This document shows positions 45,558 through 64,000 of a stretch of DNA of 64,000 nt, in pieces. Source of the stretch: Pseudomonadota bacterium (lineage in GTDB: Bacteria > CALINM01); assembly GCA_026418415.1 (NCBI GenBank), contig JAOABK010000001.1, forward strand, positions 7,080 through 71,079, read 5' to 3'. The notes under the pieces are model-generated. The model did no database searches and was not told the origin of the DNA. It saw only the letters and a list, made by a program, of their open reading frames with translations. Numbering within the stretch: the stretch's first letter is position 1; every line of letters begins with the position of its first letter. Both the position numbers and the translations under genes were made by a program.

Positions 45558-46559
45558 ATGAAAATACAAAACTTTTTTTTCTTAATAATCTTTTCAGTAA
45601 TTTTGAGTTGCAGTTATTTGACGGAATCAAAGCCATTATTGAAACAATCTGAGATTGAGAAATTAATCGCTGGAAGAATTGATGCAGAATATATTGGGAC
45701 AGATAATTGTTTAAAAAACTGCCATGAAAAGGGAAATGAACACAAAAAGTTGGCAGATTATTTTAAGAAAAGTGTTCATGCAGAACAAATTAATATAGAT
45801 ACACACCTTCCTCTTGTTAATTGTGAAACATGCCATGGACCTGGTAGCATTGCTGTTGAAAACATAAAGGAAGTCAATGGAAAAAAACAGTGCGACTTTG
45901 ATAGTCTAATTAATATAAAGAAGTTGCCAGCTGAGGCAAAAAATCTAATATGTCTTAAATGTCATACAAAAGCCTCTTCACCTAATCTTGCTATGTGGAG
46001 AGGTTCTAAACATGATTTAGCTGGGGTTTCATGTAGTGATTGTCACAAACTACACAAATCCCCTTTGCAAAAAGTTGAGCATAACCAGCAGATTGAGCTA
46101 TGTTTGGGATGTCATAAGAAAATAAAGGTAGAGATTTCAAGTTTATCAAAGCATCCATTTCATGAAAGAAAAATTATCTGTACAGATTGTCACAACCCCC
46201 ATGGAAGCTTTACAAATAATCTTTTAAAAAAGGAGTCTCTTAGAGAAACTTGTGCTAATTGCCATACTGAAAAAGCTGGTCCCTATATTTTTGAGCATGC
46301 TGATTTGATGGATGATTGTAGTAACTGTCACGTTCCACATGGTTCGGTTAATGATAATCTTCTAAAAGTCAAAGAACCTATATTATGTTTAAGATGTCAT
46401 GAAGGTCATCATTCTTTTAGAAGTACTGCATTAAGCCCTGTCAATAAATTAAAATACTATAATAGATGTACTGACTGTCATCTATCAATTCACGGGACAG
46501 ACACTCCTTCTGGTTCAGCCACAACGTTGCCAAAGAATCAAGGGAGGATGTTAAGGTAG
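45558..46559 (+). CDS. Decaheme c-type cytochrome, MtrA/DmsE/PioA-like (periplasmic/lipoprotein)
   Basis: 333 aa with signal peptide and possible lipobox ILSC. Exactly 10 CxxCH motifs: CLKNCH, CETCH, CLKCH, CSDCH, CLGCH, CTDCH, CANCH, CSNCH, CLRCH, CTDCH. Confidence 0.85.
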   Translation: MKIQNFFFLIIFSVILSCSYLTESKPLLKQSEIEKLIAGRIDAEYIGTDNCLKNCHEKGNEHKKLADYFKKSVHAEQINIDTHLPLVNCETCHGPGSIAVENIKEVNGKKQCDFDSLINIKKLPAEAKNLICLKCHTKASSPNLAMWRGSKHDLAGVSCSDCHKLHKSPLQKVEHNQQIELCLGCHKKIKVEISSLSKHPFHERKIICTDCHNPHGSFTNNLLKKESLRETCANCHTEKAGPYIFEHADLMDDCSNCHVPHGSVNDNLLKVKEPILCLRCHEGHHSFRSTALSPVNKLKYYNRCTDCHLSIHGTDTPSGSATTLPKNQGRMLR

Positions 46560-46565
46560 GGATTT

Positions 46566-48443
46566 ATGAAAAAAAATATCATTCTGGTTTTTTTAATATT
46601 TTTTACATCAAATGTAGTATTAGCAGAAGATATTGTTTATAGAGAGTTTTATTTTGAAACTGGATACAAATTTTATTCAGTAGACGGTGCTGTTGACTTA
46701 GTCAATGAATATAAAGCTTCTCGTTCTTCGCCTTATTTCTCATTAACTTATAAAGATCTCTCTCCAAACGATAAAATAATGTTCGATGCATTAATTAATG
46801 AAAAAGATAATAGAAATATTGATTTACACTATATACACAAGGATTTGCTTAATATTGAATTTAGTAATCGCTCATTAGTACATAATTTAGATCACAAATT
46901 ACTTTTATATCACCCTGAAAAATATGATTTAAATCCTTCCACAAATTACAGGCTTGATTTTTTAAAAAACTATTTCTCTACAAAATATAAACCCTTTAAT
47001 TATCCCTTTCATTTAAAACTGATAATTGAAGATATTGAAAGAGATGGGACGGTACAAAAAATATTTTATGGAGCGAGAAGTTTGGACTTGAATATACTTT
47101 CTTTACCTCCAAACCTAAGAAACAACATCTTTTCGAGGGATAGGCAAATAGGTTTTGAAACAGAAAGAATTATAGCAACAATCGATGGAATTTTAGGAGG
47201 AGTTGGATTAGTTTTTGATCTCACATCTGAAAATTTTACTAACAAACATCATAATTCTCTTGATTATTTATTAAATTATCCAACAATAAATAAAAATGCT
47301 TATGAGTTGAAATTATATAGTAATCTTACCGGTCAGTTGAGTTGGGCTCTTGCTTTAAATCGCAGGGATGCAAAAAATCATAATAGAGATGAAATAGGAA
47401 GAGAAGGGGCAAGTGTAACCCAAACAGATACTGTAGCTACAGTTACTTATTATCCAAAGAAAAATTTAAAATTTACTTTAAAAGTTGGTTACTTAGATAG
47501 GGATCAGGATAATCCAGATACCGTGAGGTTTTTAAATAATGATATAGTTGGTATTAAGGATGCGGTGTCCTATTCTAAGAAAACGGCTGATTTTTCAGCA
47601 TGGTATGAAATATCATCCAAAGCAATTTTAAAATTAAATTTAAAAAGAAAGGAAATAGAAAGAAGCTTCAATTATTTTACACTACCGGAGTATTCTCATA
47701 CAAATACAGGTGTCTTGTCTTTAGAAGGCAGGTTAAATAAAAATTTTTCTTATAAACTTATACAGAAGGTCGAAAATAATCATAATCCATCATATAAAAA
47801 AATGCCCGAGATGCTTTACTCCACAGCAGTTAATCTTAACTATGATTTTAATATATTTTCAGGTATTTACTTACAAAGTGAGTATTTAATGTCAGAAAAT
47901 AATTCTGATATTGGATATTTTCGTAGAAGTAGGGAACACAAACACTTCTTGAACTGTTGGATTAATATAAGCGATGATTTAAATTTAAATTTATATGGTT
48001 ATTATAACAGTGAAAAATTCATATCAAATATTCAGTATGGTAGTTCAAACCCAACGTTTTTTTTAGATAAAGATGTTCCATACTCTTTTACGCTTTACCA
48101 AACAGGGCTAAATATTAGTAAGATTATAAATAAAAAACACAATTTATATGGAGACGTTAGTTATGTTCGTGGATATGGTACTTATTATCCCCATCTCTTT
48201 ATAGGAACAGTTACTAATCCAGGACCACCATTAGTAACTTATAATTTCAATACTTTAGGTTTAGATAGTTTGGCTTCTACGGATTTTTATCAATATGGAA
48301 TTTTATTGGGAAATAGTTATTCAATTGGAAAAAGATCAAGGGTTAGATTAGAAGCAAGCTTGAAGGATCATGTAGATAAAACCAATTATCCTAAAGAGGG
48401 AACTGTTAAGATGGTTTTTGTATCCTGGGAAATGAAATGGTAA
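46566..48443 (+). CDS. Outer-membrane beta-barrel protein, MtrB/PioB-like porin partner of the decaheme cytochrome
   Basis: 625 aa with signal peptide (VVLA-ED), alternating hydrophobic/Tyr-rich strand patterns, and a C-terminal OMP signature ...VFVSWEMKW. It begins 7 nt after the cytochrome stop. Confidence 0.7.
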   Translation: MKKNIILVFLIFFTSNVVLAEDIVYREFYFETGYKFYSVDGAVDLVNEYKASRSSPYFSLTYKDLSPNDKIMFDALINEKDNRNIDLHYIHKDLLNIEFSNRSLVHNLDHKLLLYHPEKYDLNPSTNYRLDFLKNYFSTKYKPFNYPFHLKLIIEDIERDGTVQKIFYGARSLDLNILSLPPNLRNNIFSRDRQIGFETERIIATIDGILGGVGLVFDLTSENFTNKHHNSLDYLLNYPTINKNAYELKLYSNLTGQLSWALALNRRDAKNHNRDEIGREGASVTQTDTVATVTYYPKKNLKFTLKVGYLDRDQDNPDTVRFLNNDIVGIKDAVSYSKKTADFSAWYEISSKAILKLNLKRKEIERSFNYFTLPEYSHTNTGVLSLEGRLNKNFSYKLIQKVENNHNPSYKKMPEMLYSTAVNLNYDFNIFSGIYLQSEYLMSENNSDIGYFRRSREHKHFLNCWINISDDLNLNLYGYYNSEKFISNIQYGSSNPTFFLDKDVPYSFTLYQTGLNISKIINKKHNLYGDVSYVRGYGTYYPHLFIGTVTNPGPPLVTYNFNTLGLDSLASTDFYQYGILLGNSYSIGKRSRVRLEASLKDHVDKTNYPKEGTVKMVFVSWEMKW

Positions 48444-49357
48444 AGAGATTTATCTTATTGATGATAATTTTTTTATTTATTATAGGCGATAGGTCCTATT
48501 CTAAGGAGAGAGTTGTTGCTGTAATTTTAGCATCTAATTTAGAAAAGTTTAAAATAGCCTATAATGAATTACAAAGAACGCTACAAGAACATAAAAAGGA
48601 TAGTTATGTTCAGATTGTTTTATCAACACCTAACCCTGATCCTGCTTCATGGGCAAATGCTTTAAAGAGGGCGGAAGGTATGGAAGTAGATTTAATTATT
48701 GCTTTTGGCGCTCCTCTTGCTTATACGGCTTTGAAGGAAAGAATATCAGTGCCTCTTTTGTATGTTGATGTCTATGAAAAGGGTATTCTCGATGCTTTTA
48801 AATCAAAACAGATGACTGGGATTTATAATGTTATTCCAATAACAACAGTTTTGAAGAATTTGTTAGCGTTAAAGAGTTTTAAAACCTTACATGTTCTATA
48901 TTGTCCTTTAGAGAAAGAGAGCGAAATACAAGCAGGAAAAATTAAAGAGTTAGCAGAATACGAAGGTATAAAAGTATCCCTACATCCTTTAAAAAGTGCT
49001 CAATCAGTTTATGATATAAGTATAAACAATACCGATGCAATTTTTTTAACATCATCTGTAATTTTAGAGATGGGTGCTAATAAGATAGCTCAGTTTGCAA
49101 TAGAAAAAGAGGTTCCTTTAGTTGGTGTTTCAGAGACTGTAACAAATGCAGGTGGACTTATGTGTGTTGCACCGGATGCTAAAATACAGGGTAGGTTAAT
49201 TTCAAATTTTTTGTTAAACTATATTGAAAAGGGTATTTTAACTAAGAGCGAACAGATTAAGGAAGTTAATTTTATACTAAATATGAAGACTGCAAAAAGA
49301 ATTAATATTACAATACCTTTTACAGTTTTAAATAACGTAACAAAGGTAATAAAATGA
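48437..49357 (+). CDS. Periplasmic substrate-binding protein (ABC_sub_bind / PF04392-like)
   Basis: Signal peptide and PBP-fold motifs (DLIIAFGAPLAYTA, VPLVGVSETVTNAGGLMCVAPD). The start overlaps the barrel stop by 7 nt. Confidence 0.65.
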   Translation: MVKRFILLMIIFLFIIGDRSYSKERVVAVILASNLEKFKIAYNELQRTLQEHKKDSYVQIVLSTPNPDPASWANALKRAEGMEVDLIIAFGAPLAYTALKERISVPLLYVDVYEKGILDAFKSKQMTGIYNVIPITTVLKNLLALKSFKTLHVLYCPLEKESEIQAGKIKELAEYEGIKVSLHPLKSAQSVYDISINNTDAIFLTSSVILEMGANKIAQFAIEKEVPLVGVSETVTNAGGLMCVAPDAKIQGRLISNFLLNYIEKGILTKSEQIKEVNFILNMKTAKRINITIPFTVLNNVTKVIK

Positions 49358-51408
49358 AAGAAAAGAGCATAAAAACACCATTATACACAACAGTATTTAT
49401 CTCAATAGCATTAGCTTCACTAATTACAGCAATAGTCATTACAATCAATTTTTATAGTGATTATAAAAATAATGTATATAAAACCATTCGAAATATAGGT
49501 AATAAATTTAGTGATGATTTGCAGAAGATGATTGCCTTTGGTTTAACTATTTATGATATACCTAATTTCCAAAATGATTTAAATGAGAAATTGAATGAGG
49601 AACCAAGTATAGCATATATAATTATAACTGAGATGGATGGAACAATTTTAGCAACCAATTCAAATACACAATTAAATCAAAAGTTTTTAAGTAAAGATAT
49701 GGAAGATGTTAATGTTAATAATGAGAGGGCTTTGAATTTTCAAATAAAGGTAAAAGATCCGGAAAGACAAAATGAATTAAGATACTTGATAAACATTGGT
49801 TTGAAAAAGGGTTTTTTAAGTAAAAAAATTTACGGTTCTTTAATGATGGTGCTTGCTGTATCATTTACCACTATTTTCACAGTTTTCTTTGTTTTTAAGA
49901 GAATTATTAATAAAAGAATTGTAGAACCATTAAAAGAACTTAAAGATGCTACAGAAAAGGTTACTAATGGAGAACTATCTGTTAGTCTAACCCCTGTTTT
50001 TAATGATGAAATTGGACTTGTAACAGACAACTTCTCTGCGATGGTTAAAGAAATCAAAGAGATACTGAATAAAATTAAGGATAGTATAGAAAAGCTCAGA
50101 AATATAGGCGATAGAACTGGAGAAATAAGTCAAACCGTTAGAGATGGTTCTTTTAAACAAAAAGAGGGCATAGACAACATAAGAAAGATTTACTCTGATA
50201 TAGAAGATAGAATAAAAGCCCTCAAAAACAAGGTAAATTCACTGAATGATTTTCTTGAGCTTACTACTTCTACATTTTTGGAATTATCTGCTTCTTCTGA
50301 AGAGATTTCAAAGCTTATGGAGGAACTTCTTAGTGTAGTAGTTAAAGTAGAAGAGGCTTATAATAAACTTAGAAATATAAACATAAAACTTGATGAAGGA
50401 GCAGTTCTTTTAGAAAGGGAAGTAGAAAATATTCTTTCCTTTGTAAATCAATTAGACGCTTCGGTCAGAATAACTCTTCAGAACATTAATGAAACTTCAA
50501 GGATGGCTGAAAAAATAAATAAATTGGCAGAAGAGAGTAAATGGGCAACAAAAAGTTCAATTGAAAGTGTCAATAAAATGGCTGAAGTAACATTAGAGAC
50601 TAAAAATGCCTTCGGAATATTAAGAAACAATATAAACAAAATAACAGCAATTTTAGATGTTATAAATGAGGTTGCTGAACAGACAAATATGTTGGCTCTT
50701 AATGCTGCAATTATTGCAACTCAGAGTGATGAAAGTGGAAGAGCATTTGCTATAGTCGCTGATGAAATAAAAAATTTGTCTCGAAGAACACAAAAATCTA
50801 CCCTTGAGATATCGAGTCTTATTTCAGATATTATGAATCAAACTGAAAATGTATATTTTAAGGTTCAAGAAAGCGTTAATGAAGGTAATGTAGTTCTGGA
50901 ACAATCAAGGAATATCGAAGAAAAGGTTGCTCAAATTATTGATTTAGTATATAAACTAACAGAAAGTATGGGACAGGTTCTAAAGGCATCAAACGAACAA
51001 TCTGAAGGGAGTTCAGCTTTAAGAAGGGGTGTAGAAGATTTAAAAAATATTTCTAAAACATTAATAAATGTAAAAGATGAAGCGGTTAAGGTGGGTAACA
51101 CTATTAATGAATTATTTGATTTTATAGTTAACGTTACTAATAAAGTAAACAACTCGGTAAGAGAACAAAATGCATCAATAGGGAGTGTTAAAGGTTCCTT
51201 TGTTGAATTAAGTAATTTTTCAAAGGATTTAGTTGAACATATAGATAAAGAGGAAAAGGAGATAAAAATCTCAGAAAAAGCTCTTGAAGATGTATTGAAT
51301 TTATCCGAAGAAAATGCGATTAAGAGTAAAAACTTAGAAGAAAAGTTGTTAGAAATAAAAGAACAAATTTCTCTTTTCAAGGATTTGACAAACAAATTCA
51401 GACTTTAA
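49354..51408 (+). CDS. Methyl-accepting chemotaxis protein
   Basis: Two TM helices flank a ~130-aa periplasmic domain, followed by HAMP and the highly conserved MCP signalling region (EQTNMLALNAAIIATQSDESGRAFAIVADEIKNLSRRT). ATGA overlap with the binding-protein gene. Confidence 0.85.
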   Translation: MKEKSIKTPLYTTVFISIALASLITAIVITINFYSDYKNNVYKTIRNIGNKFSDDLQKMIAFGLTIYDIPNFQNDLNEKLNEEPSIAYIIITEMDGTILATNSNTQLNQKFLSKDMEDVNVNNERALNFQIKVKDPERQNELRYLINIGLKKGFLSKKIYGSLMMVLAVSFTTIFTVFFVFKRIINKRIVEPLKELKDATEKVTNGELSVSLTPVFNDEIGLVTDNFSAMVKEIKEILNKIKDSIEKLRNIGDRTGEISQTVRDGSFKQKEGIDNIRKIYSDIEDRIKALKNKVNSLNDFLELTTSTFLELSASSEEISKLMEELLSVVVKVEEAYNKLRNINIKLDEGAVLLEREVENILSFVNQLDASVRITLQNINETSRMAEKINKLAEESKWATKSSIESVNKMAEVTLETKNAFGILRNNINKITAILDVINEVAEQTNMLALNAAIIATQSDESGRAFAIVADEIKNLSRRTQKSTLEISSLISDIMNQTENVYFKVQESVNEGNVVLEQSRNIEEKVAQIIDLVYKLTESMGQVLKASNEQSEGSSALRRGVEDLKNISKTLINVKDEAVKVGNTINELFDFIVNVTNKVNNSVREQNASIGSVKGSFVELSNFSKDLVEHIDKEEKEIKISEKALEDVLNLSEENAIKSKNLEEKLLEIKEQISLFKDLTNKFRL

Positions 51409-55324: not shown

Positions 55325-55645
55325 TTATATAAAAATCTAATTTTTATAATTCAGATATTGAATCGCTTTATTTTCTAATTTTTTATTTCAATAATTTTGC
55401 TTTTCAGGGTATAAATTTTAAAAATTTTATTAAAACGTTAAAATTATAAAAATTTAATTGACAAATTTTAATTATAGAAGTAGGATTGCGATTAGAAATG
55501 TTTAATATAATAAAAAAGATATCTCAACCCTTTTTAGTATCTGTTAAATTTTTACCGTTTTTTAACAATAATATTGATCAAGCTGCTTTTTTTAGTTTTC
55601 AAATTTTACAAAAAATTAAATTCAACGTATTTAGTGAGGAAAAAT

Positions 55646-58600
55646 GTGAAACCTAAAAGTTTAAAATTTTTATTTTTATTTTTTTTTATAGTTTTCTTTG
55701 TTAAAACTGCCTTTAGTGTTGATCCACCACATGATAGATTTAGCTGTAATAATTGTCATGGAAACAATTTGATCTCAACTAAAAATGGTGGACTGGATTT
55801 AAGCCGGATGTGTTTAGACTGTCATAAGCCCGGTGGCTATGGAAAGCCTGTAAACACAAAACCTGCAAACCCCTATGGTACAGCTGATTTAATTATACAA
55901 AGGCACAAAGGAACGGAGCATGCCTTTTTAGGTGGTGACAACAATCCTTTAGCGAAAGCGGTTAGCCCCTCTGGTGACGAGTTTTATGGTCATAATGTAA
56001 CTGGAGTTATAACATGCGCTTCCTGTCACAATCCCCATGTTCAAAATAATGAAGATGGAAAGTTTTTACGAGTGAAATTAGGTAAAACAGACGAACTATG
56101 TTTAAGATGTCATGTAGATATGAACCAAAAACCTAATGGATACTCCCATCCAGTGAACGTTTCTCTCAATAAAGATGGTTTCTTTGTTCTGCCTCAGTTT
56201 AGTTCCTTAAGAAAGGTTTATGAGAAAAAGGAAAATAATTTAACCTGTACAGTATGCCATAAAACACATAATGGTTTTTCAAAAATAACATCTTATGGTC
56301 ATTCTGGTGATGGCTTTCTTGGAAGAACTGAAATTGATGAATGGTTGTGTTTACAGTGTCATAAAAAACCTGTTCATGGAAATTCAAAGGGGAGGCCAGA
56401 GCCTTTATGCAAAGATTGCCACACAATGCATAACCCAGGGAATAACATCAAATTGATAAAAAATAGTATAAACTTTAACGGTAATACAAAGGAAGTTAAT
56501 TTTAAAAACAATTCTTTAGCGACTGACTTTTATAATTTAGAGGGCAGTGGTGTTTGTCAGGTTTGTCATAGAAACACAAAATACTTTAAAAACTATACTG
56601 CATCTAAGTTTATAGTTACAGGAACATCCATTCACAACCCAGATAATCTAATTTGTACAGAATGTCATTCCCATGGGAATTTGGTTAATTTTCAAGCTCC
56701 AAAGGCTAAAGAAAAGCCAAATTTTGAAAAAGATGCTTTTAAAGGATGTGCGGGATGTCATGGTTTTCCACCTACATTAAATTCTTTAGGTAATAATGGA
56801 CTTGCAAGAAATGAAGGTGGAACGGGTTCTATGAATGTTGGTGCTCATATAAAACATGCAACAGAAACTGGTTATTCATTTGCTTGTAATACATGCCATA
56901 AGGGTGGAATGCCATTAACACCAATATACGATAAGAAGATTCAAATTGGTTTCGAGCTTTTTAATGGGCTTTTAAAAGGAGGTTTTTTTGAGGGAAGGAG
57001 CTCTATTAAAAATGGTTATAGTTTTTCAAGTGGTAATGGGGAAACAAATGTCTCTAATGGTAGCACAAGCAAATGCACAAACATATACTGCCATAGCAAT
57101 GCGAATCCTATCGACAAAGCAACAGTTTACAAAGAGATAGGGTGGAATAATAAAAATATTTCATGTAGGGATTGTCATAATGATATTACATATCCCGATG
57201 GTCTAAGTAGTTATCATAAAAAACATTTACAAAGTGGCTATAACTATAAATGCGAGGATTGTCATAAAGAAACAGTAATAGGAAATAATGAAATTAAGAA
57301 TAAGACCAAGCATGTAAATAGTATAAAAGACGTTGTATTTAAGCTAACAGGCGATTATGGTGTTGATAAGTCTTGTACTGTTTATTGTCATAGCGATGGA
57401 AAGGGAGGCCAACCCGAACAACAGGTTAGATGGAATATTAGTTTAACAATATCCTGCGATTCATGTCATAGAGGCAGGCTTAATGATTTTAAACAAATGA
57501 CTTCTTTTGGTCATAATAGGTTGGTGAGTAAAAACTGGATTAGAAAATATCCTTGCTATTATTGCCATGATGATACTGTTGATGAAAATGGAAATATAAA
57601 AAGTTATACAAAACATATAAACCAGATTAAAGATGTCAAAATGAGTTCTAAATGGGCAATCCCAGGAAGACCAGAACCAGCATACATAACATCTACAAAG
57701 GTTTGTACTAATGTATATTGCCACAGTGATGGGACTACAAATCCAGAAGCAGTTAAACCATTTTCATGGAATGAGGGAAGGGCTAATTGTGATACCTGTC
57801 ATGGACATCCGAGAGGTACTTGTAATAATGCAGGTTGTCATGATGGCATAGCGAGAGAATTAAAGATAGATTGGAAACCCGAGGACATATGGAAATCTTC
57901 TGTGCCAATGTATCCAAATGAAGGAGCTGGAAAGCCAAGAGCTAACTCTCATGCAAGACATATAGAAACTAATTTTACCTGTGATAAATGTCACGCAACT
58001 ACAATAATTGGTGGAGATTGTTTAAGTTGTCATAAAAATGGTATCCCTCCTGGAAGCATGACAGAGGCACCTCATCTTAATGCGAATTATCATGTAAATG
58101 GTAGGAAGGACGTTGTATTCAAAGATGGTGGTGTTTATAACCCTATAACTAAGACATGTTCGAATACTAATTGTCATACTGGTGGTAGCGATCCACAGTG
58201 GGGTGGATCAGTTAATAGCGCTGTTATATGCCTTAGCTGTCATGGAACAACAGGTGGCGATATTGATAATTTTGATGCCTTCGATGGTACTCAAGCTAAG
58301 ATAAACCTAACACAATGGGCTGTCGCAGGACACGGAAGAAAAGCATCTCATGGCAATTATCCTTCAGGAAATCCTCCCGCAAATTTTCCGGGAAATCCCT
58401 GTTGGTATTGTCATGATAATACAGTGCTTCACAAGAAAGCTGATAATCCCTATAGGTTAAAATTACATAATCAGTTTGAAAGAAGGTTTGATAAAGAGTG
58501 TGTTTACTGTCATATGGAGAAGAAAGAAGAAGAGTGTTTAAAGTGCCATAATAGCGTGGAATCACTTGCACCACAGATGAATTCAGCATCTGTTGTAGCA

Positions 58601-60904
58601 AAACATTCAAATAATATATATCTTAATGGATGTCTTAACTTACAATGCCATCCTAATGATGACAAAATTCACAAAACAGGTTCTGGCTTCTGGAATTACA
58701 CCTTGAAGGTACAGATTAAAAAACAGTATGTGTTTATGGGTGTATGTCTTAAATGCCATGATGATGATAGTGAGGGGCAATGTGAATCCTGTCATGCAAT
58801 TGATAATAAGCATAAGTTGGGTTATGATCCTGGTACTGGATTTATAAAACCACAAAAAGCAAAAGCTGCTGGTACTCACTATGGTTATAAGCATTATCTA
58901 CAGGGTTCTACTAAGGGAGGAAAATTTTGTTGGGATTGTCATGATCCTCATGGTGATACAAATATTTATATGATACACGATAAAGTAGCTGTTGAAACAG
59001 ATGGTATATTCGGAAAACCAGTTCAAAGAGCGAGTGTTGTATTTACAAGAAAACAAAGTGGCAGTGATTATGTGAAAATAAACGCACCCTATAATGGTAT
59101 TTGCAATGTTTGTCACAGCTATGGAAGCCAGCATTACAGAAAAGATGCTGGAGATGGACACCAGTTAGGAAGGGTTTGTACAGAATGTCATAATCACAGA
59201 TTTACCGATAGTCATTCTTCAGGACAACAATGTAATACCTGTCATTTAAACAAACCTATACCAAGACACTCATCCTTCGGACTACCAAGAGATTGCACAA
59301 AATGCCACAATGGTACTATTGGAAGAAGAACAAATGTTATGGCACAGTTAAAAGGAAATTCTCACCATATTCAGAATGTAAACGTAACAAACAGACATTG
59401 TTATGCTTGTCATTGGGAAGCAACCCCTGAAGGGATTGTGAATAATGATTATCATGAAGGCTACAATACTAAAACCCATTCTTCAAGGAAGGATGCAAAA
59501 GTAGATCTTGTTGTTTGGGGACCCAATAAAAGACCAACGGTTTATAAACTCTATTCTTCCGCGGTAGTATTCGTTGCAATTAGTAGTATTGGAACTCCAA
59601 GAGAAAGGGAGCAGGTAGGGAATATTTCTCAGCATTGTTTGAGCTGTCATAGTGATAAAAATAATGATACACAGCCATTTAATGATTGTAAAACACCCAA
59701 TCAATATGCATGGGATAGAAGCAGTATCGAAAGTAGATTTAAGAATAAAGAAACAACTAAATGGGGTAAGTATAATACTTCAGGGGCAGCAAAGAAGGAT
59801 ATAAATAAAGCACTATCTGCCCATGGAAATGCAAAAGCAAATGCTGGAGGCTTTGATCCAGCAAATGGCTTGGATGGAACGATTCCTAATACAAGAAATG
59901 GAAATGCAAACGTGGAATGCTTTGATTGTCATAATTCTCATGGTTCATTAGTAGGTGGAAACACTTCGAGTTATATATCCTTTAATGGAACAAAAAATGG
60001 AGGTATTTTAAAAGATACAACAGCAGGAAGAAGTGGTTATCCAATAACATATAGAGCACAGGGTAAGAGTGATGGTATTAATCCCTATTCTGTTCAAGCA
60101 GGACAATGCTTTGATTGTCACATGACGGAAAATGGTGGAGTTACAACACCTTGGGGGTACAAGTCAACCTTTGGAGCAACTCAACCTATTATGGGATATT
60201 ATGATTCAATCAAATTTGGTGAAGGAGATTCTGGTGCGAAGAAGAGATTTAGTTTTAGAAATCCCCTTAATATAAAGGGAGGGCATTTTAAAGCAAGTTC
60301 TAATCTTGTTAATACACCAGATAAACAAATAGAAGGATTGTGTACTAATTGCCATGATCCCCATGGTGTAAGCCCATCCTTTGGTGAAGATAGATTTTAC
60401 GCAGTTCCATTGCTCAAAGGGACATGGCTCACATCTCCTTATAAAGAAGATATTCCACCAACTCATGGCCCAACAGGTGGTAGTTATTTATATGATAGTC
60501 CTCAAAATCATACTAATCTTGATTCAACTTCTGTATTTCCAAATGGTAAAGCAGATGAACCAGAAGAAAAGTTTGCAGGTCTATGTCTTAAGTGCCATCC
60601 AAAAAACAAACTAACTGATGGAGTAAATCAGAATACTGCATGGAAGAGCCTTGATAGGGTTCATGAGACTGTGAAAGGTTGGGGAAAGAATACTAAGCAT
60701 AATTTTGTATGCTCAAAGTGTCATGCACCTCATACAAGCTTATTACCCAGACTCATGGTAACTAACTGTATTGATTATAACCACAGAGGAATGGTAGCTT
60801 CTGGTGGGTATCCAAATGGTGGTCGAGGTGGTAGTTATCCACAATGTCATCCTCAAGATGGGAGCTGGCCTAAGAGTTATTGGAACTGGAAGACTCCATG
60901 GTAA
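55646..60904 (+). CDS. Giant secreted multiheme c-type cytochrome (~1,753 aa, ~36 CxxCH + 6 CX3-4CH motifs)
   Basis: GTG 55646 follows GAGGA, with a Sec signal peptide (FFVKTAFS|VDPP). I counted 36 canonical CxxCH plus six C-x(3,4)-CH variants (e.g. CTNIYCH, CTVYCH, CTNVYCH). The track ORF starts further upstream at 55574. Confidence 0.85.
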   Translation: MKPKSLKFLFLFFFIVFFVKTAFSVDPPHDRFSCNNCHGNNLISTKNGGLDLSRMCLDCHKPGGYGKPVNTKPANPYGTADLIIQRHKGTEHAFLGGDNNPLAKAVSPSGDEFYGHNVTGVITCASCHNPHVQNNEDGKFLRVKLGKTDELCLRCHVDMNQKPNGYSHPVNVSLNKDGFFVLPQFSSLRKVYEKKENNLTCTVCHKTHNGFSKITSYGHSGDGFLGRTEIDEWLCLQCHKKPVHGNSKGRPEPLCKDCHTMHNPGNNIKLIKNSINFNGNTKEVNFKNNSLATDFYNLEGSGVCQVCHRNTKYFKNYTASKFIVTGTSIHNPDNLICTECHSHGNLVNFQAPKAKEKPNFEKDAFKGCAGCHGFPPTLNSLGNNGLARNEGGTGSMNVGAHIKHATETGYSFACNTCHKGGMPLTPIYDKKIQIGFELFNGLLKGGFFEGRSSIKNGYSFSSGNGETNVSNGSTSKCTNIYCHSNANPIDKATVYKEIGWNNKNISCRDCHNDITYPDGLSSYHKKHLQSGYNYKCEDCHKETVIGNNEIKNKTKHVNSIKDVVFKLTGDYGVDKSCTVYCHSDGKGGQPEQQVRWNISLTISCDSCHRGRLNDFKQMTSFGHNRLVSKNWIRKYPCYYCHDDTVDENGNIKSYTKHINQIKDVKMSSKWAIPGRPEPAYITSTKVCTNVYCHSDGTTNPEAVKPFSWNEGRANCDTCHGHPRGTCNNAGCHDGIARELKIDWKPEDIWKSSVPMYPNEGAGKPRANSHARHIETNFTCDKCHATTIIGGDCLSCHKNGIPPGSMTEAPHLNANYHVNGRKDVVFKDGGVYNPITKTCSNTNCHTGGSDPQWGGSVNSAVICLSCHGTTGGDIDNFDAFDGTQAKINLTQWAVAGHGRKASHGNYPSGNPPANFPGNPCWYCHDNTVLHKKADNPYRLKLHNQFERRFDKECVYCHMEKKEEECLKCHNSVESLAPQMNSASVVAKHSNNIYLNGCLNLQCHPNDDKIHKTGSGFWNYTLKVQIKKQYVFMGVCLKCHDDDSEGQCESCHAIDNKHKLGYDPGTGFIKPQKAKAAGTHYGYKHYLQGSTKGGKFCWDCHDPHGDTNIYMIHDKVAVETDGIFGKPVQRASVVFTRKQSGSDYVKINAPYNGICNVCHSYGSQHYRKDAGDGHQLGRVCTECHNHRFTDSHSSGQQCNTCHLNKPIPRHSSFGLPRDCTKCHNGTIGRRTNVMAQLKGNSHHIQNVNVTNRHCYACHWEATPEGIVNNDYHEGYNTKTHSSRKDAKVDLVVWGPNKRPTVYKLYSSAVVFVAISSIGTPREREQVGNISQHCLSCHSDKNNDTQPFNDCKTPNQYAWDRSSIESRFKNKETTKWGKYNTSGAAKKDINKALSAHGNAKANAGGFDPANGLDGTIPNTRNGNANVECFDCHNSHGSLVGGNTSSYISFNGTKNGGILKDTTAGRSGYPITYRAQGKSDGINPYSVQAGQCFDCHMTENGGVTTPWGYKSTFGATQPIMGYYDSIKFGEGDSGAKKRFSFRNPLNIKGGHFKASSNLVNTPDKQIEGLCTNCHDPHGVSPSFGEDRFYAVPLLKGTWLTSPYKEDIPPTHGPTGGSYLYDSPQNHTNLDSTSVFPNGKADEPEEKFAGLCLKCHPKNKLTDGVNQNTAWKSLDRVHETVKGWGKNTKHNFVCSKCHAPHTSLLPRLMVTNCIDYNHRGMVASGGYPNGGRGGSYPQCHPQDGSWPKSYWNWKTPW

Positions 60905-60917
60905 AGGAGACAGACTA

Positions 60918-63900
60918 ATGATTAAACGTTTGAACATAGCAGTTCTACTAATTTTATTTTTAACCAGTTCACTTTTTGCTTCTGGTGGTGAACAGATATG
61001 TAAAAAATTAGATATAAATAATGTTGCATATCCCACTGCTTCGGTCAGGGATTTTGAAGGCAACATAATAGTTGCAGGATATAAGAGCATATCAATGAGT
61101 GATGAATCTTTTTATATTGCTAAGATAAGTTCTGATTGTTCTGGCATTTTATGGAGTTATGAAGAAAATCCTTCCAACCAATCAGATAGATTAGTTTCAG
61201 TAACAACAGATTTTGAGGGTAATGTAATAGCAGTGGGATATATATTATATGGTTCAAACTTTGATATAAAGATTTTAAAATTGAATAAAGAAACGGGAAG
61301 TATTGTTTGGACTGAAAGGTATAATGGTTTAGCAAATCTTGATGATTTTCCAGTGGCTGTTAAAGTCGATAGCGTAGGAAATGTTTATGTTGCTGGATAT
61401 TCAAGGAATACATCGGGAAACGATGATTTTCTGTTAATAAAATATTCGAAAAATGGTGGTCTTCCATTGTGGGTTCAAACTTTTAATAGCGCTTATAACA
61501 AGGATGATAGAGCCACATCTCTTGATATAAAGTCTGACAGTGTTATCATCGCAGGATATTCAGATAACGGATCAGATCTTGATATGCTTCTTATAAAATA
61601 TGCCCTAACGGGAGAATTGCTTTGGAGTAGAAGATACATAGGTAATGCTAACAACGAAGATAGAGCAGTAGGAGTTAAAATTGACGATAATGGAGATGTA
61701 TTATTAACTGGATTTACAACCAATAGCAATGGAAATAAAGATATCTATATTGGGAAATACTTCAAAGATACAGGAGTTCCAATATGGGAGAAAATTTACA
61801 ATGGTGGTTATGATGACGAACCTTACTCTATAGCAATTGGGGAGGGTAATAATGTTTATCTTACAGGTTATACATGGACTATTGAACATCACACACAACT
61901 AACCACAATGAAAATATCCTCTTTAAATGGTGAGATTATTTGGCAAAGAAATTTTTCCCTATCAGAGGATATAACGTCAGTGGGGATTGATATTACTGTT
62001 GAGAATGAAGAAGATGTTTATGTAACAGGATATTTGGTTAGGGGTACAAACTATAATATTCTTACTTTAAAATATCACAAAATTTTGGGTAATCAAGTAT
62101 GGTCTGTAGAATATGATGGTGATGCAGGTAAAAATGATAGACCTATTGGTATTTTTATAGGTTTAGATGGTAAGGTAATTGTAGCTGGGTGGTCAGAAAC
62201 AGGTATTAATGAACCTCATTTTTTAATCCTTAAGTATGAGCCGGGTAGCATAAATGCACCAACTAATTTAACTGCAGAAGTACTTTCTAACTCACAAGTT
62301 AGATTAAGTTGGAGTGATAACTCTAACAATGAAGATTCATTCAAAATTGAAAGAAAAACTGGTGATTTAGGTAATTGGCAAGAAATTGCATCTCTATCAG
62401 CAAATACAATAAACTATATAGATAACTCAGTCTCTGCAAATACAAAATATTATTATAGAGTAAGAGCCTACAGCACTACCTTTGGTTATTCTCATTATAG
62501 TAATGAAACCAAAGTCATTACAACCGTTATAACCTTTGAACAACCAACTTGGGTGTATACGTATAATGGCTCTGGGAATAATGATGATTATGCTAATGCT
62601 ATAGCTATAGGTCCAGATAGTAATCCCGTTATTGCAGGATTTAGCTTTTCTTCAATCTCTGGCTTTGATTATGTAACTATGAAGTTGAATAGAAGCAATG
62701 GGGCTTTAATCTGGTCAAGGTCCTATGATGACCCCGAAAATGATACAGATATAGCAACATGTATAGATGTTGATAATAACAATGATGTTATTGTTTCTGG
62801 TTTTGCTTCTCTATTTAATCCTAATGTTGGATACAATACAAACGATATAATGACAATAAAGTATTCGTCAAATGGAGCTTTGCTGTGGAGTGATGCTTTT
62901 AGTGGTCCAGGCAATAATGATGATAGATCAGTTGCAATATCTGTTTCTAAAGATGCTTCGGGCAATCCCTTTATTCTTGGTTATGGTAAAAACGCATCAG
63001 GGAATGACGACATTTATCTTATAAAATATAATGCTTCTGGAACAAGACAGTGGTCAAAAATTTACAATGGCGGTGGAGATGACTACCCATCTTCATTTGT
63101 GATAGATAAGAATGGCGATGTTATTATAGCAGGTTATGTTACAAGAGGTGGTAACTTTGATTGGTATGTTAGTAAGTATAAAAACAGTGATGGTACCATC
63201 TTATGGACCTATTTTTATGATGAAGTCGGGCTTGAAGATAAGGCGCTCTCAATTACAGCGGATAAAAATGGTGATATATTTGTAACTGGTTTTATATCAA
63301 AGTCTGGTAGTATTAAAGATATTCAGTTGATAAAACTTTCTGGCGGTAGTGGTGGGCTTTTGTGGCAGAAAAAGTTTAACAGAAACTCAGGGGATAATGA
63401 GGCAATAAAGGTTTTAATAGACCCAGTTGATGGTGATATAGTTATTGCGGGTTCAATAACAAGCATAGAAGGAGATAAGGATATATATACTGCGAAGTTT
63501 AAAAATAGCGATGGTTCATTAATTTGGGAAAGGACGGTTTCAAGACTTTCAATAAACGATATTTTGGCTGATGCAGTTGTTGATATTAGCGGTAATGTCT
63601 GTCTTGGAGGTAATTCTGGACAATGGGAAGGACAGGATATCGTGGCAATAAAGTTTGATCATGAAGGAAATCTTTTAGGTGCTTCATTATATAACGGTGT
63701 GGCCAATAGACAGGATGGTGTTGAGAAAATAGCAGTTAATAGATTTGGAGAAACATTCTTAGTTGGTTATACCACTACTGCTAATGGCGACACAGATTTT
63801 CTTATATTCAAATGCGGTTTAGATCCTATTCAAGTTCCAACACCTTTAAGTGTAACAGCTTCATATAATTCTTTGGTCATTAATTGGGTAGATAATTCTT

Positions 63901-64000
63901 TTTCTGAGCTGGGTTATCGAATTGAGAGAAAAACAGGGCCATGCTCAAGCAATGATAATTTTCAAGTTATTACACAAACACCTCCTAATGTAACATCCTA
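60918..64000 (+). CDS. Large secreted beta-propeller (SBBP-repeat) / fibronectin-III surface protein, 3'-partial (runs off window)
   Basis: Not in the ORF track because no stop is reached. ATG 60918 follows AAGGAGA, with signal peptide MIKRLNIAVLLILFLTSSLFASG. More than 20 repeats of ...GN(V/I)Y(V/L)(T/A)GY... D(I/F)(L/Y)LIKY...G...W and at least two FN3-like modules (LSWSDNS..YYYRVRAY). Confidence 0.7.
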   Translation, partial: MIKRLNIAVLLILFLTSSLFASGGEQICKKLDINNVAYPTASVRDFEGNIIVAGYKSISMSDESFYIAKISSDCSGILWSYEENPSNQSDRLVSVTTDFEGNVIAVGYILYGSNFDIKILKLNKETGSIVWTERYNGLANLDDFPVAVKVDSVGNVYVAGYSRNTSGNDDFLLIKYSKNGGLPLWVQTFNSAYNKDDRATSLDIKSDSVIIAGYSDNGSDLDMLLIKYALTGELLWSRRYIGNANNEDRAVGVKIDDNGDVLLTGFTTNSNGNKDIYIGKYFKDTGVPIWEKIYNGGYDDEPYSIAIGEGNNVYLTGYTWTIEHHTQLTTMKISSLNGEIIWQRNFSLSEDITSVGIDITVENEEDVYVTGYLVRGTNYNILTLKYHKILGNQVWSVEYDGDAGKNDRPIGIFIGLDGKVIVAGWSETGINEPHFLILKYEPGSINAPTNLTAEVLSNSQVRLSWSDNSNNEDSFKIERKTGDLGNWQEIASLSANTINYIDNSVSANTKYYYRVRAYSTTFGYSHYSNETKVITTVITFEQPTWVYTYNGSGNNDDYANAIAIGPDSNPVIAGFSFSSISGFDYVTMKLNRSNGALIWSRSYDDPENDTDIATCIDVDNNNDVIVSGFASLFNPNVGYNTNDIMTIKYSSNGALLWSDAFSGPGNNDDRSVAISVSKDASGNPFILGYGKNASGNDDIYLIKYNASGTRQWSKIYNGGGDDYPSSFVIDKNGDVIIAGYVTRGGNFDWYVSKYKNSDGTILWTYFYDEVGLEDKALSITADKNGDIFVTGFISKSGSIKDIQLIKLSGGSGGLLWQKKFNRNSGDNEAIKVLIDPVDGDIVIAGSITSIEGDKDIYTAKFKNSDGSLIWERTVSRLSINDILADAVVDISGNVCLGGNSGQWEGQDIVAIKFDHEGNLLGASLYNGVANRQDGVEKIAVNRFGETFLVGYTTTANGDTDFLIFKCGLDPIQVPTPLSVTASYNSLVINWVDNSFSELGYRIERKTGPCSSNDNFQVITQTPPNVTS

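Follow-up and report, generated by a model that had tools for sequence, protein, structure and literature searches.

Heme motifs with more than two residues between the cysteines have been described in several c-type cytochromes. CX3CH and CX4CH are listed among the known heme motifs (PMC11492766), and the four heme motifs of the tetraheme cytochrome c3 of Desulfovibrio include two CXXXXCH besides CXXCH (PMC10454114). In the M. acetivorans cytochrome MmcA, mass spectrometry revealed heme mass shifts on CXXXCH as well as CXXXXCH peptides (PMC11024163). MmcA is matured by a single general CcmABCEF system (System I), also in a heterologous host (PMC9084895), and a review names only CXXCK and CX15CH as motifs that require dedicated factors (PMC3601427).

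The widened motif is also the hallmark of a domain family, NCBIfam TIGR01904 and Pfam PF09698, with many members in metal-respiring and subsurface bacteria. Existing catalogues already cover the motif, the domain family and their presence in giant Geobacter-type cytochromes, and a specialist will therefore not be surprised by another case. Geobacter, Desulfuromonadia and Nitrospirae contain numerous homologs of the protein described here, many of which NCBI, UniRef or JGI already list as “CxxxxCH/CxxCH domain c-type cytochrome”. Judged by its profile matches, the cytochrome is an ordinary further member of this family. Its six CX3-4CH motifs are very probably covalent heme c sites, four of them within the known module, which would be matured by the general biogenesis system; this reading draws on the conservation of the motifs and on the analogy with cytochrome c3 and MmcA.

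Six CX3-4CH motifs in a giant cytochrome

The gene lies in a window of 64 kb (the whole stretch of DNA that was analysed) from a genome with 31% GC, and the closest sequenced relative, an unclassified “Deltaproteobacteria” MAG, shares 73% identity in the cytochrome. The mechanical open reading frame spans 55574..60904 (+) and begins with a TTG at 55574; the true start is likely the GTG at 55646, as suggested by a GAGGA ribosome-binding site upstream. By inspection, the N-terminus that follows this GTG is basic, then hydrophobic, and ends in a signal-like AFS/VD, while the equivalent N-termini of orthologs end in ...FS/ADPPHD and ...FA/LDPPHD. Two orthologs (P0001 and P0002) measure 1753 aa each. 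The export signal would allow heme to be attached outside the cytoplasm, a general criterion for c-type cytochromes, and the protein is envisaged as a Sec-exported carrier of about 42 hemes that probably serves long-range electron transfer in an extracellular or periplasmic location. The features are compiled in Table 1.

Table 1. Features of the cytochrome locus. Amino acid positions of the six sites (501, 601, 711, 750, 862, 1020) follow the numbering of the open reading frame beginning at 55574.
Feature	Position	Strand	Remarks
Giant c-type cytochrome gene	55646..60904	+	~1752 aa, 42 predicted heme sites
Sec-type signal peptide (putative), (M)KPKSLKFLFLFFFIVFFVKTAFS / VD	55646..55717	+	by inspection
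Three-heme module 1, aa 428-536, CNTCH ... CTNIYCH ... CRDCH	56855..57181	+	module HMM 55.6 bits
CTNIYCH, CX4CH, aa 501	57074..57094	+	middle heme motif, module 1
Three-heme module 2, aa 548-633, CEDCH ... CTVYCH ... CDSCH	57215..57472	+	module HMM 56.8 bits
CTVYCH, CX3CH, aa 601	57374..57391	+	middle heme motif, module 2
Three-heme module 3, aa 652-745, CYYCH ... CTNVYCH ... CDTCH	57527..57808	+	module HMM 66.9 bits
CTNVYCH, CX4CH, aa 711	57704..57724	+	middle heme motif, module 3
CNNAGCH, CX4CH, aa 750	57821..57841	+	outside module
Three-heme module 4, aa 810-892, CLSCH ... CSNTNCH ... CLSCH	58001..58249	+	module HMM 36.4 bits
CSNTNCH, CX4CH, aa 862	58157..58177	+	middle heme motif, module 4
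CLNLQCH, CX4CH, aa 1020	58631..58651	+	perhaps degenerate fifth module
Giant beta-propeller-repeat protein gene	60918..64000	+	1027 aa visible, runs past window end; PQQ_2, SBBP, DUF5122

The motif count of the cytochrome comprises 36 CxxCH, one CxxxCH and five CxxxxCH, whereas CX1CH and CX5-8CH do not occur anywhere in the protein; 84 of the 87 cysteines fall within these heme motifs and three outside. The six non-CxxCH motifs reported in the initial annotation are all present and in frame in the open reading frame. Four of the sites had been placed correctly, and the second (57373) and the fifth (58156) were one base off. The surroundings had been described as a K/T-rich strand before and an S/D-G turn after each site, which holds in part: a T/K/S-rich stretch precedes four to five of the six sites rather than all of them, and a turn of the form x-D/G-G follows four, the other two being without it.

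A protein with 87 cysteines and 99 histidines might generate such motifs merely by its composition, and shuffles that preserve the CxxCH blocks (n = 20000) indeed yield a mean of 1.5 CX3-4CH of any kind when overlaps with the blocks are counted. Yet these shuffle motifs borrow a Cys or His from a CxxCH block, whereas all six observed sites are free of such overlap, and independent CX3-4CH motifs arise with a mean of 0.009 and a maximum of two per shuffle, as opposed to the six observed. Full shuffling produces about 0.24 motifs per spacing and no more than four CX3-4CH in any of 5000 shuffles. Given that the six sites are also kept across phyla, a chance origin is excluded.

The three-heme module and its family

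Four of the six sites form the central motif of a module of approximately 90-110 aa, which is present in four copies and occupies the middle third of the cytochrome. Whole-protein self-BLAST returned the identity match alone, and segments were therefore compared with one another: BLAST among the modules gave E-values of 6e-16, 2e-11 and 5e-9, the four modules align directly, and a module HMM detects exactly four domains in the protein. The expectation that a domain with a distinctive loop for heme attachment had been duplicated, for which an internal-repeat search had been proposed, was thus confirmed by all three approaches. That all six sites reside in one repeated module proved too broad; it applies to sites 501, 601, 711 and 862, does not apply to site 750, and is weakly supported for site 1020, the segment of which matches the other modules with E-values of 0.01-0.04.

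The module reads HxxH ... CxxCH ... H-x-N/D ... beta-hairpin, followed by (T/S)-C-(S/T)-N-x-Y-C-H-S-(D/N)-G ... W ... CxxCH. Among 523 modules, the upstream HxxH is found in 409 and the Trp ahead of the last CxxCH in 508, and the modal number of non-proximal histidines is three (294 modules). An AlphaFold model of moderate confidence (pLDDT 62.9) shows the first Cys of each of the four module sites at the end of a beta-hairpin; the model of a single module is poor (pLDDT 54.0). From first Cys to first Cys, the next CxxCH follows at 30, 27, 28 and 24 residues for sites 501, 601, 711 and 862, respectively. The corresponding distances of 53 (site 750) and 38 residues (site 1020) put the remaining two sites outside the family's spacing of about 20-30 residues. 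Site 750 pairs closely with the preceding CDTCH in a conserved CxxCH-GH-x(3-5)-C-x(2 or 4)-CH arrangement, while site 1020 may represent a degenerate fifth module, CLKCH...CLNLQCH...CLKCH. Both would be conserved heme sites in contexts other than the module.

The profile scores assign the same four sites to the catalogued TIGR01904/PF09698 “Geobacter CxxxxCH...CXXCH” domain. The whole cytochrome scores 82.4 bits against TIGR01904 (five stretches; cut-off 27) and 58.3 bits against PF09698 (three stretches; cut-off 21.7). Taken alone, the segments around sites 501, 601, 711 and 862 reach 29.2, 36.3, 40.5 and 43.1 bits with TIGR01904, all above the cut-off, and with PF09698 the first three likewise exceed it (32.4, 38.5 and 41.6 bits), the segment of site 862 remaining below at 15.4 bits. 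The segment of site 750 stays below both cut-offs (11.3 and 15.3 bits, respectively), and that of site 1020 matches neither profile.

The main value of these assignments lies in annotation, since counting CxxCH only would give 36 hemes rather than about 42 and would also overlook the three-heme module that organises the middle third of the protein. Searched with the full-length sequence, the PDB returned no structure, Foldseek found no PDB match for a 521-aa AlphaFold model, and the literature surveyed contains no biochemically characterised TIGR01904 member. For these reasons, both the maturation of CX3-7CH loops and the tuning of heme packing by such loops could usefully be studied with a purified module.

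Heme attachment and maturation

Conservation of the six sites concerns the motif residues rather than the loop length. Cys, Cys and His are retained at all six in orthologs down to approximately 33-45% identity, and the spacing at orthologous sites of close relatives amounts to 2, 3, 4 or 6-7 residues. Site 711 keeps C-x-N-x-Y-C-H-S-D-G-T-T in nearly all of 14 aligned homologs, with T for Ser in P0011 and D for Asn in P0014 as exceptions. At site 601 more distant orthologs carry CX4CH or CX2CH, at site 862 two homologs have CX6CH or CX7CH, and at site 1020, where the three residues are likewise conserved, some orthologs show CX3CH. Across 98 homologs, 579 CX4CH and 86 CX3CH stand against three CX1CH and ten CX5CH. 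The 703 modules of 99 proteins follow the motif pattern (2,4,2) in 495 cases, (2,3,2) in 57 and (2,2,2) in 42, the rare patterns being (2,5,2) in six, (2,7,2) in three and (2,6,2) in two.

At each site, the two cysteines would be linked to the heme vinyls by thioether bonds, with the next His as proximal iron ligand, as in the CxxCH motif. With one or two residues more, only the Cys-Cys loop would be wider, comparable to the two CXXXXCH of cytochrome c3, and three non-proximal histidines per module would suffice for bis-His ligation of three hemes. Conceivably, the extra Cys pairs might instead be structural disulfides or metal sites, leaving a protein with 36 hemes only: the heme counts of the family are predicted ones, and in principle the wider loop would also suit a CxxxxC motif with a redox or metal-binding role. 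This we regard as very improbable, as a His follows the second Cys at all six sites and in the 579 CX4CH of the homologs, Cys, Cys and His are conserved together around a variable spacer with canonical CxxCH at some orthologous positions, and the number of additional histidines per module is right for three hemes. Moreover, heme has been proven on CX4CH/CX3CH in cytochrome c3 and MmcA (PMC10454114, PMC11024163).

As to the maturation of these heme sites, we infer that the CX3-4CH motifs are handled by the general system for cytochrome c biogenesis of the organism, with no lyase specific to them, the loop length being evolutionarily plastic (CX2, CX3, CX4, rarely CX5-7). The initial annotation had raised the prospect of a dedicated maturation system, against which speak the lack of a linked lyase motif in the window, the variable orthologous spacing and the MmcA precedent. 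In the form that the CX3-4CH sites require their own heme-lyase paralog, located at some other place in the genome, this hypothesis appears unlikely. In its favour, Geobacter-type genomes possess several ResB/ResC paralogs, and the window covers only 64 kb of the genome; precedents exist in NrfEFG or NrfI for CXXCK and CcsA1 for CX15CH (dedicated factors: PMC3601427). However, the motif of WWD-type heme lyases (CcsA/CcmC/CcmF), W-x(1-4)-W-x-WD, occurs in no frame of the 64-kb window, and only one of 66 homologous genome loci (L024) has such a motif within 10 kb of the homolog. Known dedicated lyases tend to adjoin their substrate genes, and a linked WWD lyase as in NrfA/NrfEFG or MccA/CcsA1 was not found in the window. 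That one and the same orthologous site may have CX2, CX3 or CX4 in close relatives, with flips up to 6-7 residues, also argues for a tolerant general lyase. According to Allen and colleagues (2009), E. coli Ccm reportedly matures CX3CH and CX4CH variants; the tolerance precedents cited here concern System I only, and Geobacter relatives use System II. In MmcA both CX3CH and CX4CH carry heme with the general Ccm system alone (PMC11024163, PMC9084895).

Twenty other genes of the window, scanned with Pfam, have housekeeping, signalling and transport functions and include one further multiheme cytochrome (45558-46559) but no cytochrome biogenesis gene. In 41 of 66 genome loci the cytochrome homolog is directly followed by a gene for a beta-propeller-repeat protein, and the pair spans Geobacter, Desulfuromonadia, Desulfobulbia and Nitrospirae MAGs. 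It is a tentative idea that cytochrome and beta-propeller protein constitute a two-gene surface electron-transfer machine and that the resident lyase accepts a continuum of Cys spacings. If so, the tandem three-heme modules would form the wire of an uncharacterised cell-surface machine, and the drift of the middle-heme loop through CX2, CX3, CX4 and CX6-7 would reflect a spacing continuum accepted by what is probably a System II lyase, which would go beyond what has been demonstrated experimentally for System II.

Comparison with other multiheme cytochromes

MmcA resembles the cytochrome in mixing CXXCH, CXXXCH and CXXXXCH, with covalent heme on all of them (PMC11024163). Yet MmcA is heptaheme, archaeal and Rnf-attached, and the likeness drawn here pertains to motif types. 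Cytochrome c3 (class III, PF02085) likewise mixes CXXXXCH with CXXCH and packs bis-His low-spin hemes in a small domain, whereas the module holds three hemes rather than four and is arranged in tandem within a protein of about 1750 aa. The segment of site 501 aligns with PF02085 at profile positions 43-84, the CX4CH...CXXCH stretch, with 20.4 bits. As this best score falls short of the Pfam threshold of 22.9, the module was rejected as a cytochrome c3; PF02085 is not among the Pfam matches of the whole cytochrome, and c3 structures gave very weak matches only in the PDB search with the module profile (E 0.5-5).

The best match of the module profile to a solved structure is cytochrome c554 of Nitrosomonas europaea (1bvb, 1ft5; E 1.2e-5), with which all three heme motifs align in order. 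Where the module has its widened middle motif, c554 carries a canonical CxxCH, and its function in the hydroxylamine oxidation chain is unrelated. The similarity is remote and confined to the superfamily level.

With PF09698 (GSu_C4xC__C2xCH) and TIGR01904 the cytochrome shares the family-wide consensus (T/S)-C-S/T-N-x-Y-C-H-S-D/N-G, then W...CxxCH, as well as the presence of several domain copies per protein, four according to HMM, BLAST and alignment. It differs in that the copy at 57374 is CX3CH rather than CX4CH, a variant common to the two closest orthologs, and in that two more CX4CH sites, those at 57821 and 58631, are not captured by the domain model. Finally, the c7-like profile PF14522 (PpcA, GSU1996-like) scores 121.2 bits over nine stretches of the cytochrome (threshold 24.8). 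Its best stretch, aa 547-633, coincides with module 2, which points to the module as a c7-like three-heme unit repeated head-to-tail. While all three hemes of c7 domains are attached at CxxCH, the middle heme of the module would be held by a CX3-4CH loop after a beta-hairpin.

Non-canonical heme motifs in the giant cytochrome

In addition to 36 canonical CxxCH motifs, the translated cytochrome contains one CxxxCH and five CxxxxCH motifs, while motif counting detected no CX1CH or CX5-8CH motifs. The 42 predicted heme sites account for 84 of the 87 cysteines. All six CX3-4CH sites of the initial annotation were recovered in the translation; four of its coordinates were exact, and two (57373 and 58156) were one base off.

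Features of the cytochrome gene and its surroundings (residues refer to the first Cys, counted from TTG 55574; TIGR01904 scores are for short segments scored alone, cut-off 27 bits)
Feature	Position	Strand	Residue	TIGR01904 (bits)	Remarks
Second cytochrome, 333 aa	45558-46559	+			Lipoprotein-like signal (…ILSC), 9 CxxCH, one CX3CH (CLKNCH at 45708)
625-aa protein	46566-48443	+			Signal peptide, C-terminal ...SWEMKW
ABC-type substrate-binding-like protein, then HAMP/MCP chemoreceptor	48437-51408	+			Between the two cytochrome loci
Long ORF, cytochrome	55574-60904	+			Contains all six sites
CTNIYCH	57074-57094	+	501	29.2	
CTVYCH	57374-57391	+	601	36.3	This lineage has CX3; most homologs have CX4 and three have CX2
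CTNVYCH	57704-57724	+	711	40.5	
CDTCH-GHPRGT-CNNAGCH	57788-57841	+			Two heme motifs just six residues apart, between modules 3 and 4
CNNAGCH	57821-57841	+	750	11.3	Below cut-off; CX4 or CX2 in orthologs
CSNTNCH	58157-58177	+	862	43.1	CX4; CX7 (CSNTSTTGCH) and CX6 (CSGTGSGCH) in two homologs, P0009 and P0010
CLNLQCH	58631-58651	+	1020	no hit	CX4 or CX3 in orthologs
Giant beta-propeller-repeat protein	60918-64000	+			Runs past window end; Pfam PQQ_2, SBBP, DUF5122

The mechanically listed start codon, TTG 55574, is probably wrong, and translation probably starts at GTG 55646. The latter is preferred because it is preceded by a GAGGA ribosome-binding site, yields a proper signal peptide and gives a protein of approximately 1752 aa, in agreement with the closest orthologs (1753 aa). 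Read from this codon, the N-terminus is typically signal-peptide-like (KPKSLKFLFLFFFIVFFVKTAFS, then VD), i.e., the cytochrome carries a predicted export signal.

The six sites exceed chance expectation. A count of six was never reached in 5000 full shuffles, which gave about 0.24 motifs per spacing class. Under a fairer null model, where the 36 CxxCH blocks were kept intact and only motifs borrowing no Cys or His from these blocks were counted, 20000 trials averaged 0.009 independent CX3-4CH motifs and never gave more than 2, compared to the 6 observed. Together, 98 homologs harbour 579 CX4CH and 86 CX3CH, yet only 3 CX1CH and 10 CX5CH motifs.

A repeated three-heme module of a known domain family

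The segments of approximately 110 aa that surround the sites resemble one another, most strongly 601 and 711 (E = 6e-16), followed by 601 and 862 (E = 2e-11) and 501 and 711 (E = 5e-9). The segment around site 1020 reaches only E about 0.01-0.04 against the others, and that around site 750 matches only because it overlaps the 711 segment. Direct alignment of four units reveals three invariant motifs, C..CH, C(3-4)CH and C..CH, and a module HMM built from 44 diverse instances finds exactly four domains in the cytochrome (aa 428-536, 548-633, 652-745 and 810-892). Therefore, the repeated unit is a module of three hemes spanning about 90-110 aa, wherein the non-canonical motif provides the middle heme. 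Accordingly, the duplicated domain initially proposed for all six sites holds for 501, 601, 711 and 862, but not for 750 and only weakly for 1020.

Among 523 regex-defined module instances from 99 proteins, 409 carry an upstream HxxH, 486 have a first linker containing His (commonly H-x-N/D) and 508 possess a Trp before the last CxxCH. Non-proximal His residues most commonly number three per module, which would be the number required for bis-His ligation of its three hemes. In an AlphaFold2 model of aa 385-905 (pLDDT only 62.9) each of the four modules shows a two-stranded beta-hairpin that leads into the opening Cys of its CX3-4CH motif, and thus the strand postulated before each site is seen in the model at the four module sites.

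The feature is the already known TIGR01904 / PF09698 domain. The whole cytochrome scores 82.4 bits with TIGR01904 “CxxxxCH/CxxCH domain c-type cytochrome” (cut-off 27) and 58.3 bits with PF09698 “Geobacter CxxxxCH...CXXCH motif” (cut-off 21.7). The c7-like model PF14522 likewise matches the protein, and its best match coincides exactly with module 2. The motif pair involving site 750 lies outside the TIGR01904 model; homologs preserve this arrangement in the form CxxCH-GH-x(3-5)-C-x(2 or 4)-CH.

Heme attachment, loop length and maturation

The motifs are non-random, co-conserved, embedded in a repeated module and part of a curated heme-domain family. Each CX3-4CH site would bind heme c like CxxCH, through two thioethers and the proximal His, and the one or two extra residues would only widen the Cys-Cys loop. 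Accepted heme motifs include CX3CH and CX4CH (PMC11492766), cytochrome c3 contains two CXXXXCH motifs (PMC10454114), and CXXXCH and CXXXXCH peptides of MmcA from M. acetivorans carry a +615 Da heme adduct (PMC11024163).

The 98 homologs were retrieved in a protein search (E ≤ 1e-10), with identities of 83% and 73% for the two closest, and a collection of 5.8 billion proteins holds none at ≥90% (best 83%). Many of the homologs are named “CxxxxCH/CxxCH domain c-type cytochrome” or “predicted CxxxxCH...CXXCH cytochrome family protein”. Homologous genome loci occur in Geobacter, Geobacteraceae, Desulfuromonadaceae, Desulfobulbia, Nitrospirae and Thermodesulfovibrionia MAGs, the nearest (73%) belonging to an unclassified “Deltaproteobacteria” MAG. 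The GC content of the window, 31%, appears much lower than in the homolog-bearing Geobacter and Nitrospirae relatives.

In an alignment with the 14 top-ranking homologs, both Cys and the His of each of the six sites are kept wherever the proteins align, down to approximately 33-45% identity, but the Cys spacing at the same site differs. The CX6 and CX7 variants at site 862 imply that the middle-heme loop tolerates still longer insertions. The Cys-Cys spacings of 703 module instances comprise 495 (2,4,2), 57 (2,3,2), 42 (2,2,2), 6 (2,5,2), 2 (2,6,2) and 3 (2,7,2) patterns, proportions that lean towards (2,3-4,2) because the module HMM was built from such modules. The consensus around CX4CH is (T/S)-C-S-N-V/I-Y-C-H-S-N/D-G, which the cytochrome fits. 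This loop-length plasticity at orthologous sites is a mildly new point.

The idea that the variant motifs need a dedicated maturation system is reasonable, since CXXCK and CX15CH are documented to have lyases of their own (PMC3601427). The evidence goes against it, and the proposal was not borne out: all frames of the 64-kb window lack a CcsA/CcmC/CcmF-type WWD motif, Pfam scans of 20 other window genes revealed no cytochrome biogenesis gene, and a WWD protein lies within 10 kb of the cytochrome homolog in only 1 of 66 loci (L024). Moreover, CcmABCEF suffices to make holo-MmcA, whose hemes include those at CX3CH and CX4CH; a heterologous host supplied with these genes alone produces it (PMC9084895). 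Motif-specific enzymes are also hard to reconcile with a loop length that switches at orthologous sites. The Ccm system of E. coli is said, in work by Allen et al. from 2009, to mature CX3CH and CX4CH variants. The MmcA precedent concerns Ccm; Geobacter relatives use System II.

Gene neighbourhood and relation to known cytochromes

The upstream genes encode gyrA, a TPR protein and an RlmH-type methyltransferase; on the downstream side, the beta-propeller gene begins 14 bases past the cytochrome stop codon. Of 66 genome loci from several phyla, 41 have a beta-propeller homolog (25-68% identity) directly after that of the cytochrome; the one in locus L001 (15265-23142) is 2625 aa long. Cytochrome and beta-propeller genes thus constitute a conserved pair, another mildly new point. 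The CLKNCH motif of the 333-aa cytochrome indicates that CX3CH is used by another cytochrome of the same genome. The 625-aa protein that follows it lacks Pfam hits and may be an outer-membrane beta-barrel; if so, the two would constitute a porin-cytochrome pair. The substrate-binding-like protein and the chemoreceptor may form a sensing pair, for which no link to the CX3-4CH motifs was seen.

Beta-propeller proteins adjoining outer-surface multiheme cytochromes have precedent, e.g., in Desulfovibrio ferrophilus (PMC5815863), and a “cytochromome” survey of Desulfuromonadia describes very large multiheme cytochromes as mostly predicted extracellular and uncharacterised. The module profile found no solved member of the family in the PDB, and no matches were obtained for the full-length cytochrome against the PDB by sequence or for the AlphaFold2 model (aa 385-905) by Foldseek. 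The site-501 segment falls just short of the class III cytochrome c3 model (20.4 vs 22.9 bits) over its CX4CH...CXXCH stretch, and among PDB entries the module profile best matches cytochrome c554 of Nitrosomonas (E = 1.2e-5), an alignment that pairs all three heme motifs in order.
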